Positions 12,357-29,149 of a stretch of 32,000 bases of DNA are shown in pieces (the stretch's first letter is position 1; each line of letters starts with the position of its first letter). Made by a program: the position numbers and the translations under genes. The notes under the pieces were generated by a model. That model was not told the DNA's origin and did not search any database. It saw only the letters and a list, made by a program, of their open reading frames with translations. Source of the stretch: Wolbachia endosymbiont of Dirofilaria (Dirofilaria) immitis (lineage in GTDB: Bacteria; Pseudomonadota; Alphaproteobacteria; Rickettsiales; Anaplasmataceae); NCBI RefSeq assembly GCF_013365455.1, contig NZ_CP046578.1, forward strand, positions 1-32,000. The letters are read 5' to 3'.

Positions 12357-12690
12357 TGTATTTATGTATGAAAGTTAGGAATTGAAGATCATTTTTCTTA
12401 AGTTTGTTTTAGTGTGCTAGATATTGGTATGAAAGTGGCAGTAAGATTAAGAAATTTGTAAAAAATATCTAAAAACTTTGTTCGATTTATGGAACTTTCT
12501 TGATAATTTATAGAGGTATATGTTTAGTAGAATAGAAAAATGTGTAGATAAAAAGAAGCGAAAAAAATTAAAGATAAAGTTGTGATCTATGTACTGTATA
12601 TAGGGCATTAAATAATGTGGAGTAATGAGCTGCTGGTTAGATACATCCGGATAAGCTTAAAAGATGATTAAGAATGAGCATTGAAGTACA

Positions 12691-12719
12691 AAAGAAGAGC
12701 ACTGCTAGTGCTTTTCTTT
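12691..12719 (+). terminator. terminator-like hairpin: 13-bp stem with one G.U pair, 3-nt loop, flanked by an A-tract and a T-tract
   Basis: aaagaagagcact-gct-agtgcttttcttt, paired by hand. The GC core gagcac/gtgctt is followed by ttttcttt. It lies ~335 nt downstream of the purD stop, inside an ORF-free spacer. Confidence 0.4.
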
Positions 12720-13094
12720 AGCTATTTAGAGAAAATGCTTGTGTGAAATTGCTCTAAAAGTGGTTAAAATATAAAATTAAAGTTAAAAAAAAAGTGAAAA
12801 AAAGTTTATAAATAACTGGACTAAAAAAAATGACTGAGGTCTAAATCTTTATATATAGCATGTACAAGCATTGGTTAGTGATGAAAGTTATGGTGGTTAT
12901 GATAAACTTAAAGTATACTAACTTGAGAGGAGGATTGAGAAGGTTAAACTAACTATTATGCAGAGTCTATTAGCTCAAGGTAAATTGAGGAGCTAGCCTG
13001 CACTATATATTAAAGCTTTAGAGGAGCTTAGTTTACTTACTCTATTATTTTCTTTATTATCAAATATTGCTTTGAATAATATGGAGGTGGTAAG

Positions 13095-16160: not shown

Positions 16161-16845
16161 TTGCTGAATAAAGAGCAGCATCCTTATATTCTCTCACTAG
16201 GACTTTCAAGTATTTCTTTTAGAAGGGACTATTGTTAATGACAAAGTATAAGTAATTGTAAAAATCTTTTAGCCTTAACATGTTGTTTTTATAGTTTTAA
16301 TAGTAATAGCCTTGTTTAAGAGTATATTTCACTAGCCATGTTTACTCTTGTTAGTGATAATATTAGTTTCAGGTTTATTGTTATATAAAGACCCTGGATG
16401 GCCCTGGACTATTCTGGTGATATAGAAAATTTCTGCTTTTGATAAGCAGTGATCAGCATGTTTAATAATTTTTTCTTTCTTCTATTGAGTAATCTAGGGT
16501 TTGCTTATTTTTATGTTTATGACTTGTTTATTCAATTTTCTCTGTTCAACTATAGTAAATAGATTATACTAGTACTTTGTTAAATAAATAATAATATGAC
16601 ACAAATGTGTACTATGTTAGTGTATTTTATATTAATGACTTAATAAGCATTATTGCTGATTTTGCTGTACACATGATGATTTTATTCTGTTTGACAGAGC
16701 GTAAAAACATAAAGTCTGTGGTTCATCTATAACAGAGAAAATTTATTAGAATAATATTTTCTATTTTGTATAAAATGGGTGTTTTCATTGTTAGCTATTT
16801 TGTTAACATTAGTTCTTACATAAGTTTTAAATTGACTGTATTGCA

Positions 16846-20091: not shown

Positions 20092-20571
20092 TTACCTTTC
20101 TTTATTCTGCTTTGGAATAAGCTTATCATGTATGTACCATCTATATAGCAATATAAACATTCCACAAGCTATATATATATCTGCTAAGTTAAAAGCTGGC
20201 CAGTACCAATTGCCAGTATGAAAATATATAAAATCATATACAGCTCCCCAATAGATCCTATCAGCTACATTTCCAATTGCTCCACCAACCATAAGGGAAA
20301 AACTGAAATAAGTTAGTTTATCATTAGACTTATGTATCAAATATATAAGTATACTAATTATTATTATTGAAAATGTTGAAAAAAAAAGGTTACTATGCGG
20401 TAAAGTGCTAAACATTCCAAAACTAATCCCTGTATTCCATACTTCAACTAGTTTTATAAAGCTAGAAACTTCAATTGACTCTCCCTTATTAATCAATGAA
20501 TTTGTGTACAGTTTGCTAATCTGATCAGCTGATACCATGATTAGTATGGCAATTAAGCATAATTTTTTCAT
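20092..20571 (-). CDS. lspA: lipoprotein signal peptidase (signal peptidase II)
   Basis: 159 aa with four TM segments. Motifs NTGISFGMF, GGAIGNVADR, VYDFI and FNLADI. Confidence 0.92.
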   Translation of the reverse strand: MKKLCLIAILIMVSADQISKLYTNSLINKGESIEVSSFIKLVEVWNTGISFGMFSTLPHSNLFFSTFSIIIISILIYLIHKSNDKLTYFSFSLMVGGAIGNVADRIYWGAVYDFIYFHTGNWYWPAFNLADIYIACGMFILLYRWYIHDKLIPKQNKER

Positions 20572-21503
20572 AAGTTTGCTCTCAACTGATAGGCTTTAAG
20601 TATATCATGACTTATTTGTTTTGTTAATTCATCAATACTATGAAATCTTTTTTCTGACCTAATAAATTTTAAAAGTTGTATGTTGACCTTACAATCATAT
20701 ATGTCTCCATTAAAGTCAAATATATGCATTTCTATTATGGGCTTTCTTAAGTCCTTAAACGTAGGCCTCATACCAATGTTGACCACCCCATATAGCCAAT
20801 TTGGTGGATTGATGTCAGAAAATGCTACTTTAGCATAATATGTACCAAATTTGGGTTTTATCATGCAATCTTCTATCGCAATGTTTATAGTTGGAAATCC
20901 TATTTTCCTACCTCTGTGTGCACCTTCTGCTACAATACCAGAAACTTGATAAGGTCTGCCAAGTAACTTATTAGCAGTTTCTATTTCGCCTTTTTGTATA
21001 TGTTCTCTGATTAAAGAAGAAGAACAAACTTTTCCGTTAATCATTAATGGTTCCAATTTAGCTAAAGAGTACCCGTATGTTTTAGAACGTTTTTTTAAAA
21101 TTAATATATTACCTAATCGGTTATAACCAAAAGTGCAACTTTCCCCAACAACTATGTGTTTTGCACTGTATCTATCTATTAAAATCTTGCTAATGAAGTC
21201 GTTGAAACTTACTTGAGCAAAGCCTTTATTAAAGTTGATAATATATAAGTAATCTATATTGTAGTTGCTGATTAGCTCTTTTTTCTGTTCTTGGCTTATT
21301 AATCTAAAATTATTTTTGTTAAATAGGACAGTTGATGGGTGAGGCTCAAAAGTTAAAATTGCAGAGGGTAATTTTCTTTCCTGAGCTGTCTTTTTTAGAG
21401 AAGAAATTGCAAACTTATGTCCTAAATGCACACCATCGAAATTTCCAAAAGCTAATGCTACGCTGCTCTTTATCTCTTGCTCAAAGTCATAAATAACTTT
21501 CAT
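20568..21503 (-). CDS. ribF: bifunctional riboflavin kinase / FAD synthetase
   Basis: N-terminal GNFDGVHLGH, followed by GFPTINI and a C-terminal riboflavin-kinase block (IEMHIFDF..). Its stop overlaps the lspA start by 4 nt (ATGA). Confidence 0.92.
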   Translation of the reverse strand: MKVIYDFEQEIKSSVALAFGNFDGVHLGHKFAISSLKKTAQERKLPSAILTFEPHPSTVLFNKNNFRLISQEQKKELISNYNIDYLYIINFNKGFAQVSFNDFISKILIDRYSAKHIVVGESCTFGYNRLGNILILKKRSKTYGYSLAKLEPLMINGKVCSSSLIREHIQKGEIETANKLLGRPYQVSGIVAEGAHRGRKIGFPTINIAIEDCMIKPKFGTYYAKVAFSDINPPNWLYGVVNIGMRPTFKDLRKPIIEMHIFDFNGDIYDCKVNIQLLKFIRSEKRFHSIDELTKQISHDILKAYQLRANL

Positions 21504-22982: not shown

Positions 22983-23492
22983 TTAGAAAGCCTTAAATCG
23001 CCAGAATTTCTCTTTACCTTTACTAATTCCAATTCTTGGGGTACAGATATAATTTGGTTTAAGATGAGACTCATAAACACAAAATTCATGGCTTATAGTG
23101 AGATCTTGGTTATTATGTTCTTTTGTAATATTTAATCTTTTGCATAGTATTCCTGGCCCGTTTAAGTTTACCTCAGGCGGTTCAATGAGCTTCAATCCTC
23201 GTATTAACACTGCGGCTGGAAATCCTTCTGTCTCTGTTACAATGTTTAAACAGTAATGCATTCCATATGTGAAATATACATACGAAAACCCTGGCATGCC
23301 AAACATTACTGAAGTTCGGTTAGTGTAGCCTCGTGCTGCATGACAAGCTGGGTCATCTATTCCTATATAGGCTTCAACTTCAGTTATTATCCCACTAAAG
23401 CTAGAAAACTTTAGTGTTTTTCCTAATAACTCTCCAGCTACAATTAAAGTTGGCTGCTCATAAAAATTTCTTGGTAGTATTATATTATTCAT
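22983..23492 (-). CDS. mpg: DNA-3-methyladenine glycosylase (Mpg/AAG family)
   Basis: Blocks [64 protein letters not shown] and AAVLIRG. The ORF track starts at TTG 23522, inside a hairpin. ATG 23492 ([11 protein letters not shown]) is the more likely start. Confidence 0.88.
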
Positions 23493-23545: not shown

Positions 23546-24577
23546 TTAGTTAAGAGGATATATACATCTCTGAGAAACAGGAGCTTGATGTTCTTGCGGT
23601 TTGTCTACACCTGTTACGTTTGTTGAAGGGTGATGCAAAATTTTGACTAATTCAGAACTTTTTTGTTGTAGTTGTGGCAATTGTGATGCTAATGCTTCAT
23701 ATAGGAATTTTGCTTCACATTTCTTGCCTACTTTTACCTCTTTATTTGCACGTAATTGTTCTTCAGTGATACTATTGCTCTTGATAAGCCTTATAGAACC
23801 ATCATCGTTGATGTTAATTTTAATATTACATTCTTTTTCTCCAGCATACCATTTTATAGTCATTTGATATGATCCATTGATCACCTCATAAACTCTTTTT
23901 CCACTATCATTAATGTAGCAACATGCTCCTCTTGTTTTTTTTTGGTTAGGGTAGCAGAATGTGATTGTTTTTACGTTATATTTTTTACATATATTACCAC
24001 TTAGAAGTTTAGTTACATTTACTTCTTTTTCACTATCATTCAATGTAACTCTTATGGAAGGATAAACAAGATTGTTTTCCCTTTTGGCTTCTTTGAGCCT
24101 TATAGATCCTATAGTGTTGTTTGCTATACTTTTAGATATCTCTCTTTTGATTTGTTCAGCTATTTTACCTGTAATATCTCTGCCATTATATTTATTTTTA
24201 CCACGAGCAAAGGGCTTTTGATTTGTGATATTAGTAGAAAGGTTGTTCTGCAATAAAAAGAACTTATTCCATGCTTCATCATTATCAAGAATAATACTAC
24301 GCTCACTTTTATCTAGTGTTAATTCAGATGTATTCTGAGTGCTCAAGTCACTAGGAAATTCTTCTTTTACAGTTATATCGGAATTATCACCACTTACCCT
24401 TTTATTGTTCAGGGAGGTAAGATACTCTTCTTGCTTTTTTTTGTTCGCTTTTAAGGCTGTCTTATTGGAAGAAGATTCTTCCACCATAAGTGCATAGGGA
24501 CTTTCAACTTTTCCCTTAATTGTGGAACAGATAGCTTTCCAAAGTTTTCTAATCTTGTCTAACATATACTCCTCCAT
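23546..24577 (-). CDS. hypothetical protein (orphan) with a polar low-complexity N-terminal half and a Cys-containing C-terminal domain
   Basis: Uninterrupted 343-codon ORF. The second ATG (24565) is preceded by ggaggag. GSIRL occurs twice, with PSIRV between the two copies. No known family motif recognised. Confidence 0.55.
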
Positions 24578-24635
24578 TAGTATTGATATATAACTAGTAT
24601 AAAAGCATTATATCAGTTAGTCAATATTGAAGCTG

Positions 24636-25566
24636 TTAGTATTGAAGGCTCAAATGTTTTTCTGCTTGATTAGTTAAAACGCGTCCCCTTGGTATGTGCT
24701 TTATGAAATTGATTTTTGTAAGATAAGACTCCACTGTTTCTTTAATATTATCGCTATCCTTAGATAGTGTGATGAATATAGTGTCAATTCTCCAATAGGT
24801 CCTGAGGTACTAAATAAATTAGATATTAGCTAATATCTAATTTATTTAGTTTCATTTTATTTATGCCCAATTTTGATAGTGCGGAGTCAGCAATTTCATG
24901 GATAATTTTTTTATCGTTTTCTGTTTTAACAAAATTCCTTGTTTTTTTGAGTAATCTTGAAGCAATTCTTGGAGTATCATGTGTACAGCAAGCAATTTCT
25001 TTGTATTATATCTTTCCTGATTTCAGCAGAAAAAATTTTGTGCATCTTTTTATAGTTTTAGTCAGCTATTCGAAGGAAGAAAGCTCAAGGTGTAAAGGGA
25101 TGCTAAAACGATTACTTAACAAGGTGGGAAGTAGTCAAGTCATGTTGTTGTTCCGGTCAACGTAAAGGTGGTGGTTCTATCCTCAAGTGCAAGTGAATGA
25201 ACTTCTTCAATGCTATGGTTTGGTCTATAGACTTTGCTGGTAGATAGAACACATCTTCTACATTTAAAGTAGTGAACGCTGCAGCTAGATTTCTAGTTTT
25301 ATTAGGTAAAGGATCAGAGATTGCACGAAAACCAACTCTTGATTTTTTAGAAACAATTTGTACTAAAATTATTTTTCCAACCCTCTGGCTAACCAGAGTA
25401 ACAGAATGTGATTAAAGCTTCAGTTTTTGTCTGTTCAGCGTTTGTAAGTACTCTTAAATTTGTGTATTCAGTCTTTTTATTCAATAAAGTCATCAAGCCG
25501 TTCAGGCCTAATATTTAAATTGTGTACATTTTGAGTATATTCTTTACCATATGGTATCGATTTCAT
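24636..25566 (-). pseudogene. ruvB: ruvB (Holliday junction branch-migration ATPase) pseudogene
   Basis: Manual three-frame translation gives colinear RuvB blocks from start to stop. In order: [14 protein letters not shown]; NAEQTKTEAL/HILLL; a degenerate Walker A ARGLEK/GKIILVQIVSKK..GFRAISDPL; FTLTGTTT* (TGA where Arg is expected); NRFSIPLHLE; [18 protein letters not shown]; GPIG; [42 protein letters not shown]. The path needs at least 5 frame changes and crosses at least 6 premature stops. Confidence 0.9.
24809..24850. repeat. perfect 42-bp palindrome (21+21, no spacer) inside the ruvB pseudogene
   Basis: actaaataaattagatattag|ctaatatctaatttatttagt. All 21 pairs were verified position by position. 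The pairing breaks at 24808/24851. Confidence 0.95.
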
Positions 25567-25570
25567 AATA

Positions 25571-26135
25571 TTATATTGAAAATTCCTTAAGTGCTATACG
25601 AATAATCTCTTTGGTATCTGAGTTTGGCGATTTGTTTCGTATTTTACTGTATAGTAGACTTTCATTTTTACCAAAGATTGATTAAAGCTGATACAGCAGC
25701 TTCTTTAATTAGATAAAAGTTTCTATTATTTAGTTATTTATTTCCAGTTTATTCACTTTGCTACTTAGTTCAGTGATAATTAGATTTATGAATTTTAAAC
25801 CAAGTCCACTTATTGTAACTTTATTCTCACTCATAATTGCTAAGAACAGCTGCTCTGGAGTTAGTTTACTTCAAAATTAACATATTGCGGATTCTATAGC
25901 TAACACCACTCACTTTAACTAGTTGTAAGCACTGCTACCCTTTTTTGCTTGTAGAGCCGTATAGTTGAGTAATATTTATTTGCGTAGATTTTAATAAAAA
26001 GCTTAACTTTGCTTTAGAGTTTGCCTCTTACTTAGAAAAACTAGAAAGCCACGTGACACAATTAAACACAAGACATCAACTATGTAGCACCCTCTCTGTC
26101 ACTTTGACCTGTACAGGTTGAAGGTAATTAAACAT
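25571..26135 (-). pseudogene. ruvA: ruvA (Holliday junction DNA-binding subunit) pseudogene
   Basis: Colinear RuvA-like blocks are spread over three frames. In order: MFNYLQPVQVKVTE; IVDV..; VKLFIKIYANK..LY; LVKVSGVSYRI; [35 protein letters not shown] (HhH region); KEAAVSALINL(+1)[21 protein letters not shown]. The stop lies 4 nt before the ruvB ATG, which is the classic ruvAB operon spacing. Confidence 0.8.
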
Positions 26136-26317
26136 CCTTACTTTCATGATAAGAGGATTGGAAAAGTTTGTCAAGTGTTTTTTTATTTGTAGCTAGAGAG
26201 ATCTGGATGCTAGTTAGTTACTTATGTGATTTCCTTCTTATGAGTCTGTGTTTATGTTATTATCCCATAATAATGAGGAATTTGTAGAAAGTTACTGTAA
26301 ACTCATGTATTTTAACT

Positions 26318-29149
26318 ATGATAGTCGAAAGTGTGTGGTGTATGGAAGATTTCATCAGAATTAAGGGTGCAAGAGAACATAATCTGCAAGGTGTAGATGT
26401 TGATATACCAAAAAATAATCTAGTTGTTATCACTGGACTGAGTGGTTCTGGTAAATCTAGTCTTGCGTTTGACACGATTTATGCAGAAGGTCAACGTCGG
26501 TACGTTGAGAGCTTATCAACCTATGCGCGCCAATTTCTTAACATCGAGGATAAACCAGATGTTGAATCAATTACGGGTCTCTCCCCAACAATATCCATTA
26601 ACCAGAAATCGATCTCAAAAAGTCCAAGATCAACAGTTGGAACTGTTACTGAAATTTATGATTATCTACGCTTAATGTATGCCCGAATAGGGGTTCCTTA
26701 CTCACCTGTAACTGGACTACCAATAAGGAAACAAACTATATCTCAAATTGTAGATGCTATAATGGCGTTACCTTTAGAAACTAAAGTATATATTCTTGCT
26801 CCCATTGTACGTGATAGAAAGGGGGAACATCTCAAAGAGATATTGGAAATTAGAAGGCAAGGTTATGTAAGACTAAAAATAGATGGTAGAATGCATGATA
26901 TAAGTGACCTACCCAAGCTTGATAAAAGTAAAAGGCATGATATCTTTGTGATTATAGATAAGGTATCAATATCAGATGATATAGGAAATAGATTGCCAAG
27001 TAGTATAGAATCGGCATTAAGACTTGGTCATGGGTTAATATATGTAGAAATAATAGACTTACCTAATGATCGTGATTCCGAGTATAAAAATGGTCATATA
27101 CTAACCTTTTCGGAGAATTTTACATGTCCGGAGTCCGGTTTCACTCTTAGAGAAATAGAGCCAGGGTTCTTTTCTTTTAATAGCCCCTATGGGGCGTGTG
27201 GGTTATGTAATGGACTTGGTAAGAAGCTAAGTGTTGATATAAAGCTAATAGTGCCGGATGAAACGCTTTCAATATCTAAAGGCGCTTTAAGGCCATTGGG
27301 GCCAATATTCTATCAAACACACAAAAATTATGGATTTCTAAAGGATGCAATCCTGTTACTAGCTGAAAATTATAAATTTAGTCTTGATGTCTCATGGAAG
27401 AATATAGATCAAAAAGTGAAGGATGTAATACTTTTTGGTTCTAGAGAAATGGGATTTCAAGGTTTGGTCAATATTCTAGAATGTCAGATAGATTATGATA
27501 AAACACTTATTGAGCGATATTGCTCTATTGCTTACTGTAAGGAATGTACTGGTTATAGATTGAGAAAAGAAGCACTTACGGTAAAAATTGATGAAAAGCA
27601 CATAGGTGAAATATCTAGGTTTAGTATTGATGAATCTCTTAAATGGTTTGAAAATTTGCCGAGTAAACTTACAGAACAACAGAAGCAAATCTCAATTAAG
27701 ATATTAAATGAAGTGGTTAAGAGGCTGATCTTTTTGAGAAATGTAGGGTTGAATTATCTTACACTTGACCGTGAGTCTAGTACTCTATCTAGTGGCGAGA
27801 GCCAGAGAATTAGGCTTGCTTCGCAAATAGGTTCTGGTTTAACAGGAGTACTGTATGTGCTTGATGAGCCTTCAGTAGGTCTTCATCAATATGATAATTA
27901 TCGATTAATTACCACACTCAAAAACTTAAGAGATATAGGTAATACTGTAATTGTTGTTGAACATGATGAAGATACAATAATGGCTGCTGATTATGTAATT
28001 GATATTGGTTATGGAGCTGGTATAAATGGAGGAAGAATCATTGCAGAAGGAACACCAGATCATCTGCAGAAGAGCTCAAAGAGTATAACAGGGCAATATT
28101 TAAGTGGAAGGAGAAAAATTTTAATTCCAAAGAGAAGAAAACAAACAACTCAGTTTATTAAAGTAATTAACGCGTGTGAGAATAATTTAAAGAATATAAG
28201 CGTTGAGTTTCCTATAGGAAATTTTATTTGTGTTACTGGAATATCAGGGGGAGGGAAATCGAGTTTAGTTATAGAAACACTATATAAATATTCAGCATAT
28301 AAAATATATCATTCATCTGTAAAGCATGGTAGGTGTGATAAAATAGAAGGCCTTGAGTATATAGATAAAGTTATAGAAGTCGACCAGTCACCAATTGGTA
28401 AGACTCCCACATCAAATCCAGCAACATATGTAGGTGTCTTTACTCATATAAGAAATTGGTTTGCAGGGCTTCCGGAATCAAAAGCACGGGGTTATAGCAT
28501 AAACCGATTTTCATTTAATGCTAAGGGAGGAAGGTGCGAAGCATGCAAAGGTGATGGACATCTAAAAATAGAAATGCATTTTCTACCAGATGTTTATGTG
28601 AAATGTGAACAGTGTAAAGGTCAGCGATATAATCGGGAGACATTAGAGGTCACTTATAAAGGTAAGTCAATTTTTGATGTGCTTGATATGACTATAGATC
28701 AAGCCTGTGATTTTTTTGAAAACCTTCCAATGATAAAAGAAAAATTGGTTTCTTTGCAGGAAGTAGGGCTTGGATATGTAAAACTTGGACAGTCATCGAC
28801 AACGTTGTCTGGGGGAGAAGCACAGCGGATAAAGCTATCTAAAGAGCTATCTAAACGATTTACTGGTAGGACATTATATATTCTTGATGAGCCAACAATT
28901 GGACTACACTTTGAAGATGTAAATAACTTACTGAAAGTGCTTCATAAATTGGTTGATTTAAAAAACACTGTTATAGTTATCGAGCATAATTTACATGTTA
29001 TAAAAAATGCAGATTATATAGTAGACATCGGACCAGAGGGTGGAGTAAAAGGCGGGGAAGTGGTTGCTAAAGGCACTCCAGAAAGTATAATAGATATACC
29101 AGAGAGTATTACAGGTAAATATCTTAAATCATACTTGTCAACGGTATAA
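26318..29149 (+). CDS. uvrA: excinuclease ABC subunit A
   Basis: N-terminus IRIKGAREHNL. Two Walker A motifs (GLSGSGKSSLAFDT, GISGGGKSSL), two LSGGE signatures and CxxC zinc modules are present. The true start is probably ATG 26342 (MEDFIRIKG..). Confidence 0.95.
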   Translation: MIVESVWCMEDFIRIKGAREHNLQGVDVDIPKNNLVVITGLSGSGKSSLAFDTIYAEGQRRYVESLSTYARQFLNIEDKPDVESITGLSPTISINQKSISKSPRSTVGTVTEIYDYLRLMYARIGVPYSPVTGLPIRKQTISQIVDAIMALPLETKVYILAPIVRDRKGEHLKEILEIRRQGYVRLKIDGRMHDISDLPKLDKSKRHDIFVIIDKVSISDDIGNRLPSSIESALRLGHGLIYVEIIDLPNDRDSEYKNGHILTFSENFTCPESGFTLREIEPGFFSFNSPYGACGLCNGLGKKLSVDIKLIVPDETLSISKGALRPLGPIFYQTHKNYGFLKDAILLLAENYKFSLDVSWKNIDQKVKDVILFGSREMGFQGLVNILECQIDYDKTLIERYCSIAYCKECTGYRLRKEALTVKIDEKHIGEISRFSIDESLKWFENLPSKLTEQQKQISIKILNEVVKRLIFLRNVGLNYLTLDRESSTLSSGESQRIRLASQIGSGLTGVLYVLDEPSVGLHQYDNYRLITTLKNLRDIGNTVIVVEHDEDTIMAADYVIDIGYGAGINGGRIIAEGTPDHLQKSSKSITGQYLSGRRKILIPKRRKQTTQFIKVINACENNLKNISVEFPIGNFICVTGISGGGKSSLVIETLYKYSAYKIYHSSVKHGRCDKIEGLEYIDKVIEVDQSPIGKTPTSNPATYVGVFTHIRNWFAGLPESKARGYSINRFSFNAKGGRCEACKGDGHLKIEMHFLPDVYVKCEQCKGQRYNRETLEVTYKGKSIFDVLDMTIDQACDFFENLPMIKEKLVSLQEVGLGYVKLGQSSTTLSGGEAQRIKLSKELSKRFTGRTLYILDEPTIGLHFEDVNNLLKVLHKLVDLKNTVIVIEHNLHVIKNADYIVDIGPEGGVKGGEVVAKGTPESIIDIPESITGKYLKSYLSTV

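Follow-up and report, generated by a model that had tools for sequence, protein, structure and literature searches.

Functional RuvAB, the Holliday-junction branch-migration system, is known from Wolbachia of arthropods and of supergroups D and F, including WD_1113/WD_1112 of wMel, Wbm0251/Wbm0252 of wBm and the locus (L005) of wMoz, the Wolbachia of Mansonella ozzardi. In functional Wolbachia operons, ruvA and ruvB are uninterrupted, overlap as ATGA, encode the Walker A, Walker B and GATTR arginine of RuvB and evolve under purifying selection; the copy described here fails on every one of these points. Badawi et al. 2014 (PMC4224334) concluded that supergroup C has an inactivated homologous recombination pathway. 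Their Table 1 scored priA, recA, recF, recG, recO, recR, ruvA, ruvB and ruvC as pseudogenes in wDir, the symbiont of Dirofilaria immitis, and in wOo ruvA and ruvB were likewise scored as pseudogenes ('P'), together with ruvC, recA, recF, recG, recO and recR. Recombination-gene pseudogenes of wOo, including ruvA/ruvB, RecA and RecG, were described by Darby et al. 2012 (PMC3514676), and supergroup C was found to have lost 5-9 recombination genes (Lefoulon et al. 2020, PMC8116671). Here we analyze the ruvA-ruvB locus of the Wolbachia of Dirofilaria immitis (wDimm), a supergroup C symbiont of the dog heartworm with a genome of 920,122 bp. The window is the whole stretch analyzed, 32,000 nucleotides (nt) from position 1 of CP046578, the complete wDimm genome assembled from PacBio circular consensus sequencing (CCS) reads (Lefoulon et al. 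2020, PMC8116671).

Loss of ruvAB in wDimm is already known, having been published in 2012-2014, and carries little weight as a discovery. Loss of recombination genes has also been linked to the frozen synteny and strong GC skew of wDi (Comandatore et al. 2015, PMC4703054). The published wDir and wOo cases concern the same locus and the same organism, and those papers (PMC4224334, PMC3514676) give presence/pseudogene calls only. Our additions are modest: a lesion map on complete CP046578, a comparison with wOo and a second Onchocerca-clade assembly (L035), dating by codon position, and a near-balanced spectrum of insertions and deletions (indels). In our reading, 24636..26135 is very probably the unitary, non-functional remnant of the single wDimm ruvA-ruvB operon, lying at the ancestral syntenic position and forming part of the recombination loss of supergroup C. 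This resembles genome reduction in other obligate endosymbionts, where selection on recombination and repair is relaxed in a strictly vertically inherited symbiont; Buchnera, for example, is reported to have no recA (Dale et al. 2003, cited in both PMC4224334 and PMC4703054). In ancient insect symbionts, however, such genes are usually wholly gone, whereas in wDimm full gene remnants are still readable.

A full-length but decayed ruvA-ruvB operon

The initial annotation described this region as a full-length ruvA-ruvB operon present only as decayed pseudogenes, in which conserved blocks could still be read. Searches with tblastn, frameshift-aware alignment and BLASTP bore this out, with exactly the same coordinates (26135..24636, minus strand). 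By three-frame translation and motif mapping, every block quoted there was recovered, and the conserved blocks of the minus strand were found to be spread over three frames. RuvB blocks comprised an 11-residue block (25512..25480), FTLTGTTT (25166..25143), RFSIPLHLE (25110..25084), a 10-residue block (24978..24949), GPIGE (24802..24788) and IPRGRV (24695..24678), all on the minus strand. Five Wolbachia RuvB queries gave linked high-scoring segment pairs in all three minus frames by tblastn (E 3e-43 to 2e-49), and a crude stitched translation matched Wolbachia RuvB at 49-55% identity (E down to 7e-85) in a search of a protein collection. Using a custom-written, frameshift-aware dynamic-programming alignment with Wolbachia RuvB P0001 as the reference, the protein could be aligned end to end with 25566..24639, with 184/304 codons identical. 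The repaired RuvB translation scored above the curated Pfam cut-offs for RuvB_N (PF05496, 82.4 bits), AAA_lid_4 (PF17864, 54.3 bits) and the RuvB_C winged helix (PF05491, 45.2 bits). Such a three-domain match points to descent from RuvB, not to function.

The ruvB pseudogene occupies 24636..25566 on the minus strand, with the ATG at 25566, a final sense codon ending at 24639 and a terminal TAA at 24638..24636. In the alignment with P0001 it showed 10 frameshifts and was interrupted by 5 in-frame stops, and 18 codons were missing. The stops (TAA 25479, TGA 25470, TAG 25391, TGA 25142 and TAG 25068) fall at RuvB codons 30, 33, 59, 159 and 184. An earlier figure of at least 5 frame changes was therefore an underestimate; of the claim of at least 6 premature stops, the presence of multiple stops held, while their number is 5 on the optimal path and varies with the alignment path chosen. 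An 18-codon in-frame deletion suggested by the protein alignment was rejected at the DNA level, where a 52-nt deletion plus two 1-nt deletions fits better; the 52-nt deletion takes out the DFCLDILVGEG segment.

Several lesions strike the motifs on which RuvB ATPase activity depends. The Walker A motif (P-loop; 25358..25398, minus strand) is destroyed, GPPGLGKTTL having become SG*P/RVGKIIL through +1 frameshifts at 25398 and 25385 and the TAG at 25391. Walker B, IDEIHRL (DEIH) in the intact protein, reads L/SKVYRP (SKVY) following a +2 frameshift. The GATTR arginine is replaced by TGA (25140..25142, minus strand), so that this stretch reads FTLTGTTT*, and a +2 insertion follows GPIG at 24790; these changes, together with the loss of Walker A, had been recognized in the initial annotation and were all recovered. 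An uninterrupted RuvB reading frame, the Walker A GPPGLGKT and Walker B DEIH motifs, and the GATTR arginine are thus all missing from the remnant. Its longest minus-strand open reading frame (ORF) is 44 amino acids (aa), compared with approximately 325 codons in intact RuvB.

The ruvA pseudogene (25571..26135, minus strand) runs from an ATG at 26135 to a terminal TAA at 25573..25571. Frameshift-aware alignment with the Wolbachia RuvA of L005 and of a second intact locus, L007, gave approximately 6 frameshifts, 1-2 stops and 112/178 identical residues, in agreement with the earlier view that ruvA is broken across frames. One stop is the internal TAG at 25937, and a possible second one, TGA at 26078, depends on the alignment path; the remnant also carries an 8-nt deletion and an 8-nt insertion, and the uninterrupted RuvA frame of approximately 190 codons is absent. 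When repaired, the translation matched the RuvA of wMoz with 59% identity (BLASTP, E 2e-59); it is identified as RuvA from this match and from synteny, the ruvB remnant following immediately. At the junction, the ruvA TAA (25573..25571) is followed by TATT and then by the ruvB ATG at 25566, which places stop and start 4 nt apart, as had been claimed, while in intact Wolbachia the two genes overlap as ATGA. Judged by their lesions, neither ruvA nor ruvB can yield a working protein, and the RuvB ATPase motifs are lost.

Gene order supports the same assignment. At the wDimm site the order is uvrA, the ruvA-ruvB remnant, the gene of a conserved hypothetical protein and mpg. Among intact Wolbachia, the gene after ruvA-ruvB encodes a homologue of this hypothetical protein in L005 and is mpg in L007. 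Because the neighbours are the same as those of intact ruvAB in these loci, the remnant lies at the ancestral single-copy site, and the ancestral arrangement proposed earlier is upheld. The remnant is also close to functional Wolbachia ruvAB in length (1500 vs 1547-1556 nt) and shows 72-73% nucleotide identity to it.

Shared locus and timing of loss in supergroup C

Sister genomes were located through the hypothetical protein, whose closest homologue (85% identity) is in L035 and which has cluster-mates in wOo (L037 = HE660029). Both wOo and L035 have the same layout, uvrA / approximately 2 kb without a long ORF / hypothetical / mpg, and ruvA-ruvB remnants were present in that gap in both. A comparison with sister genomes, as the initial annotation had proposed, therefore showed ruvAB pseudogenes at the same site with lesions mostly different from those of wDimm. 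In wOo, ruvA has 7 frameshifts and 1 stop, and ruvB has 12 frameshifts and 4 stops. L035 has many lesions in common with wOo, including 12 shared indels, and additionally a deletion of approximately 340 nt that joins ruvA codon ~157 to ruvB codon ~74. Since wOo still has this segment, the deletion is younger than pseudogenization; the fusion point lies at L035:9150-9200. None of the wDimm stop codons is common to wOo or L035, where those codons are sense or deleted; for example, at the GATTR arginine codon that is TGA in wDimm, wOo keeps an arginine codon (CGC) and L035 has a histidine codon (CAC). In Walker A, wOo has a +1 insertion in the same alignment column as wDimm.

The time at which constraint was lost was examined by tallying substitutions by codon position in the frame of the intact genes; branch-specific values were restricted to sites where both intact references agree. 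The references came from a search of genome contigs with a RuvB alignment that included the repaired wDimm sequence; it returned 34 loci, intact Wolbachia ruvAB among them, and none from wDimm, wOo or wOv. Between the two intact Wolbachia loci (L005 vs L007), ruvAB differs by 8.3/4.5/29.1% at positions 1/2/3. Between wDimm and wOo, the five flanking genes retain such a bias (9.4/6.7/22.0%; chi-square p=5e-49), but the ruvAB remnant does not (25.2/23.0/28.2%; p=0.19), and its divergence is at least the third-position rate of the neighbouring genes at every codon position. Substitutions specific to wDimm (15.7/14.0/15.5%; p=0.77) and to wOo (9.6/7.8/10.0%; p=0.50) were evenly distributed, whereas shared-derived ruvAB substitutions, common to wDimm and wOo, were not (7.0/3.3/11.5%; p=5e-5). 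The wDimm and wOo branches thus appear to have evolved neutrally, with the stem branch still under purifying selection. Because both terminal branches look neutral while the shared substitutions show purifying selection, we infer from the codon pattern that selective constraint on ruvAB was probably lost at about the wDimm/wOo split.

This pattern leaves two histories to be weighed. In one, ruvAB was inactivated once, in the common ancestor; in the other, the Dirofilaria and Onchocerca lineages of Wolbachia each lost it on their own shortly after they split. The latter is the less likely of the two, yet it is the only alternative considered here that keeps appreciable weight. Shared disabling mutations were sought in two MAFFT alignments, and nearly all indels and all stop codons proved to be lineage-specific. 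At most three single-base indels fell in the same column in wDimm and wOo (columns 73, 139 and 803), and these candidates lie in poorly aligned stretches where placement is not robust. A further indel, at column 1257, is present in wDimm and wOo but absent from L035 and was rejected as a shared ancestral lesion, being attributed to homoplasy in an A-run. The purifying-selection signature of the shared-derived substitutions also suits independent loss. However, neither terminal branch shows detectable constraint, which implies that ruvAB worked only briefly, if at all, once the lineages had split. In addition, the entire recombination pathway is dead in both lineages (PMC4224334), and one ancestral event, e.g., loss of recA, is more economical (PMC4703054). 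No shared indel would be left if the first hit was regulatory or missense; the ancestral event might have been of either kind, or a relaxation of selection after recA loss.

A scenario consistent with these observations is that RecA-dependent strand exchange had gone, which plausibly left ruvAB without a substrate. Constraint on ruvAB would then have been lost near the time when the Dirofilaria and Onchocerca Wolbachia lineages split, and indels and stops would afterwards have built up separately in each lineage, with the sequence shrinking little overall. Since recA, recF, recO, recR, recG, ruvC and priA are also pseudogenes, no recombination pathway is left for RuvAB to serve. The earlier proposal that this organism, if it has no second copy, lacks RuvAB-driven branch migration is probably right, but taken alone it is incomplete given the loss of recA, recFOR, recG, ruvC and priA (PMC4224334). 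A suggested effect on gene-conversion-based antigenic variation is not relevant, as this is a supergroup C Wolbachia and not a pathogen of the Anaplasma/Ehrlichia type.

Damaged ruvB was also observed outside supergroup C. A metagenome-assembled genome, Wolbachia sp. C61_2, carries on a 1.15-Mb contig a ruvB with 12 frameshifts and 83% aa identity (L031:10001-10975). The ruvB of wTis (L021:10001-10977) has one frameshift and one stop, and that of wPpe (L020:10001-10983) has one +2 frameshift. Decay of ruvB seems either to have recurred independently within the genus or to reflect assembly error in those drafts.

Evidence against the unitary-remnant reading and alternative explanations

Several points weigh against the reading of this locus as a unitary remnant. 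The repaired RuvA translation had no Pfam match at E<=0.001. The absence of a second ruvAB copy rests on a protein database and published surveys, and the lesions were read from the assembled sequence. The few same-column indels noted above belong here as well: they do not establish an ancestral disabling mutation, and parallel loss soon after the split fits about as well.

If the remnant were a dead duplicate, an intact ruvAB elsewhere in the genome would still provide branch migration. The contig-collection scan gave no wDimm locus, so that the genome outside the window was not covered by it. The protein collection, however, holds the proteomes of wDimm, wOo and wOv; when it was queried with the repaired pseudogene RuvB and with intact Wolbachia RuvB, no RuvB of these three strains occurred among the 21 RuvB clusters listed, which had at least 72% identity to Wolbachia RuvB (one is named Ehrlichia). 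In published BLAST and KEGG surveys, too, the ruv genes of supergroup C were either missing or present only as pseudogenes (PMC4224334, PMC3514676, PMC8116671), and the remnant occupies the ancestral single-copy position, with the neighbours seen in intact Wolbachia. Together, these observations make a functional second copy very improbable. The two patterns used in the contig search, DNIKETVE and IRPERLDDF, both occur in the window, and supergroup C genomes seem to be absent from the contig collection.

Co-option of the remnant, whether as a regulatory RNA, as small peptides from ORF fragments or through a 100-aa antisense ORF at 24863..25165, has slightly less to recommend it still. Almost all gene models of wOo, pseudogenes included, are transcribed at some level (PMC3514676), and short ORFs are called in the remnants of L035 and L036. 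No pseudogene protein products were detected in wOo (PMC3514676), however, and the ORF fragments are not the same between lineages. The antisense ORF is spurious: stops break it up in wOo and L035 and even in intact Wolbachia. Divergence at or above the third-position rate of the neighbours at every codon position also argues against a retained function, as does the lack of any Rfam family or tRNA match in the region; none was found anywhere in the 32-kb window. Nor was any part of the remnant seen to be markedly more conserved across supergroup C than neutrality would predict.

Finally, it is scarcely credible that the genes are intact and that their apparent frameshifts and stops arose during sequencing or assembly, for instance as long-read homopolymer indels: the assembly is indeed from PacBio CCS reads (PMC8116671) and several indels are single bases in A/T runs, but indel errors cannot yield 5 substitution-derived stops, a 52-nt deletion and an 8-nt insertion, nor do they explain the Walker A/B residue changes, approximately 40% aa divergence and uniform codon-position divergence, while the flanking genes are intact in the same assembly, an earlier independent wDir draft also scored ruvA/ruvB as pseudogenes (PMC4224334 Table 1), and wOo and L035, which were sequenced independently, also have broken genes at this locus.

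Tempo of decay and neighbouring genes

The remnant has kept most of its length. At 1500 nt, the wDimm remnant retains 96% of the original length, and the wOo remnant, at 1545 nt, retains 99%, with a pairwise divergence of approximately 0.31 neutral substitutions per site. Because so little net DNA has been lost (1500 of approximately 1550 nt are left), the remnant is still present; the earlier statement that the inactivation was too recent for the sequence to be erased is thus misleading, given that constraint was probably lost near the Dirofilaria/Onchocerca split. Insertions and deletions were nearly balanced, 14 vs 15 among the 29 indel events in wDimm and 11 vs 13 among the 24 in wOo. GC content has fallen to 32.0% in wDimm, compared with 36.7-38.2% in the intact orthologues. 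Lineage-specific substitutions numbered 181 in wDimm vs 109 in wOo (approximately 1.7x; window 24636..26135 vs L037:4385-5929). The slower rate in wOo is in line with a published suggestion of unusually slow wOo evolution.

In a bacterium whose recombination is dead, these remnants could act as a small natural experiment in how DNA decays under neutrality. Against a well-preserved, datable pseudogene pair, the mutation spectrum, indel balance and relative rate can be gauged locally in the absence of selection, here in symbionts targeted by drugs against heartworm disease and onchocerciasis. If the indel balance were genome-wide, supergroup C might be without the strong deletional bias held to be general for bacteria, maybe as a result of RecA/RuvABC loss; we put this forward tentatively and consider it doubtful. 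If true, weak deletional bias could explain the long pseudogene-filled spacers of supergroup C Wolbachia. The initial annotation suggested that loss of RuvAB may add to the build-up of decaying DNA, and the slight net shrinkage at this one locus would be compatible with that. Five more ORF-free spacers of 0.7-1.4 kb were observed in the window (5977..7343, 29150..30289, 2724..3430, 12357..13094 and 16161..16845). The largest, 5977..7343 (1.37 kb), gave no Pfam signal in six frames; should these spacers be decayed genes, their decay has advanced beyond that of ruvAB.

The repair genes flanking the remnant are intact, as the initial annotation had stated: both are full length, contain their Pfam domains and align end to end with the wOo orthologues. 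The divergent neighbour of the ruvA remnant is uvrA (26342..29149, plus strand; 935 aa, QKX02012), which has Pfam UvrA domains and 86.5% aa identity to wOo UvrA, with a codon-position divergence of 9.4/5.9/21.5%. The 3-methyladenine DNA glycosylase gene mpg (22983..23489, minus strand; 168 aa) matches PF02245 (E 1.6e-51), and its product is 91% identical to wOo Mpg.

Directly downstream of the ruvB remnant lies the gene for the hypothetical protein that marks the syntenic site (23546..24565, minus strand), which is intact. It is annotated as 339 aa; a 343-aa ORF form extends to 24577, the annotated start being 4 codons later. Its homologues are confined to Wolbachia, are approximately 300-350 aa long and adjoin ruvB in intact genomes, and a Pfam search found no domain. 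Divergence between wDimm and wOo by codon position (8.0/7.7/22.3%) indicates purifying selection. In supergroup C the gene is still intact and constrained despite the death of the operon partners upstream of it, so a promoter of its own must lie within the ruvB remnant or downstream of it. Protein accession numbering is informative for the gap between this gene and uvrA. RibF (QKX02007), glutaredoxin (QKX02008) and UvrA of the window matched wDimm proteins exactly in the protein collection, and the QKX series leaves room for exactly 3 proteins between glutaredoxin and UvrA, for which the candidates are a 294-aa ORF, Mpg and the 339-aa hypothetical protein. Since the series fits only these 3, we infer that 24578..26341 is without any annotated protein.

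Two further observations concern other genes. A sodium:alanine symporter at the window end, which appeared truncated in the ORF list, is in fact intact as far as the window reaches. The ribF gene (window 20568..21503) is intact in wDimm, encoding 311 aa with both domains. In the Onchocerca-clade loci L036:9135-9996 and L038:9135-9995 it is split into two called ORFs, one for FAD_syn (111 aa) and one for Flavokinase (157 aa), and the wOo record (L037) has no gene call in the ribF region. ribF appears to be broken in the Onchocerca lineage only.

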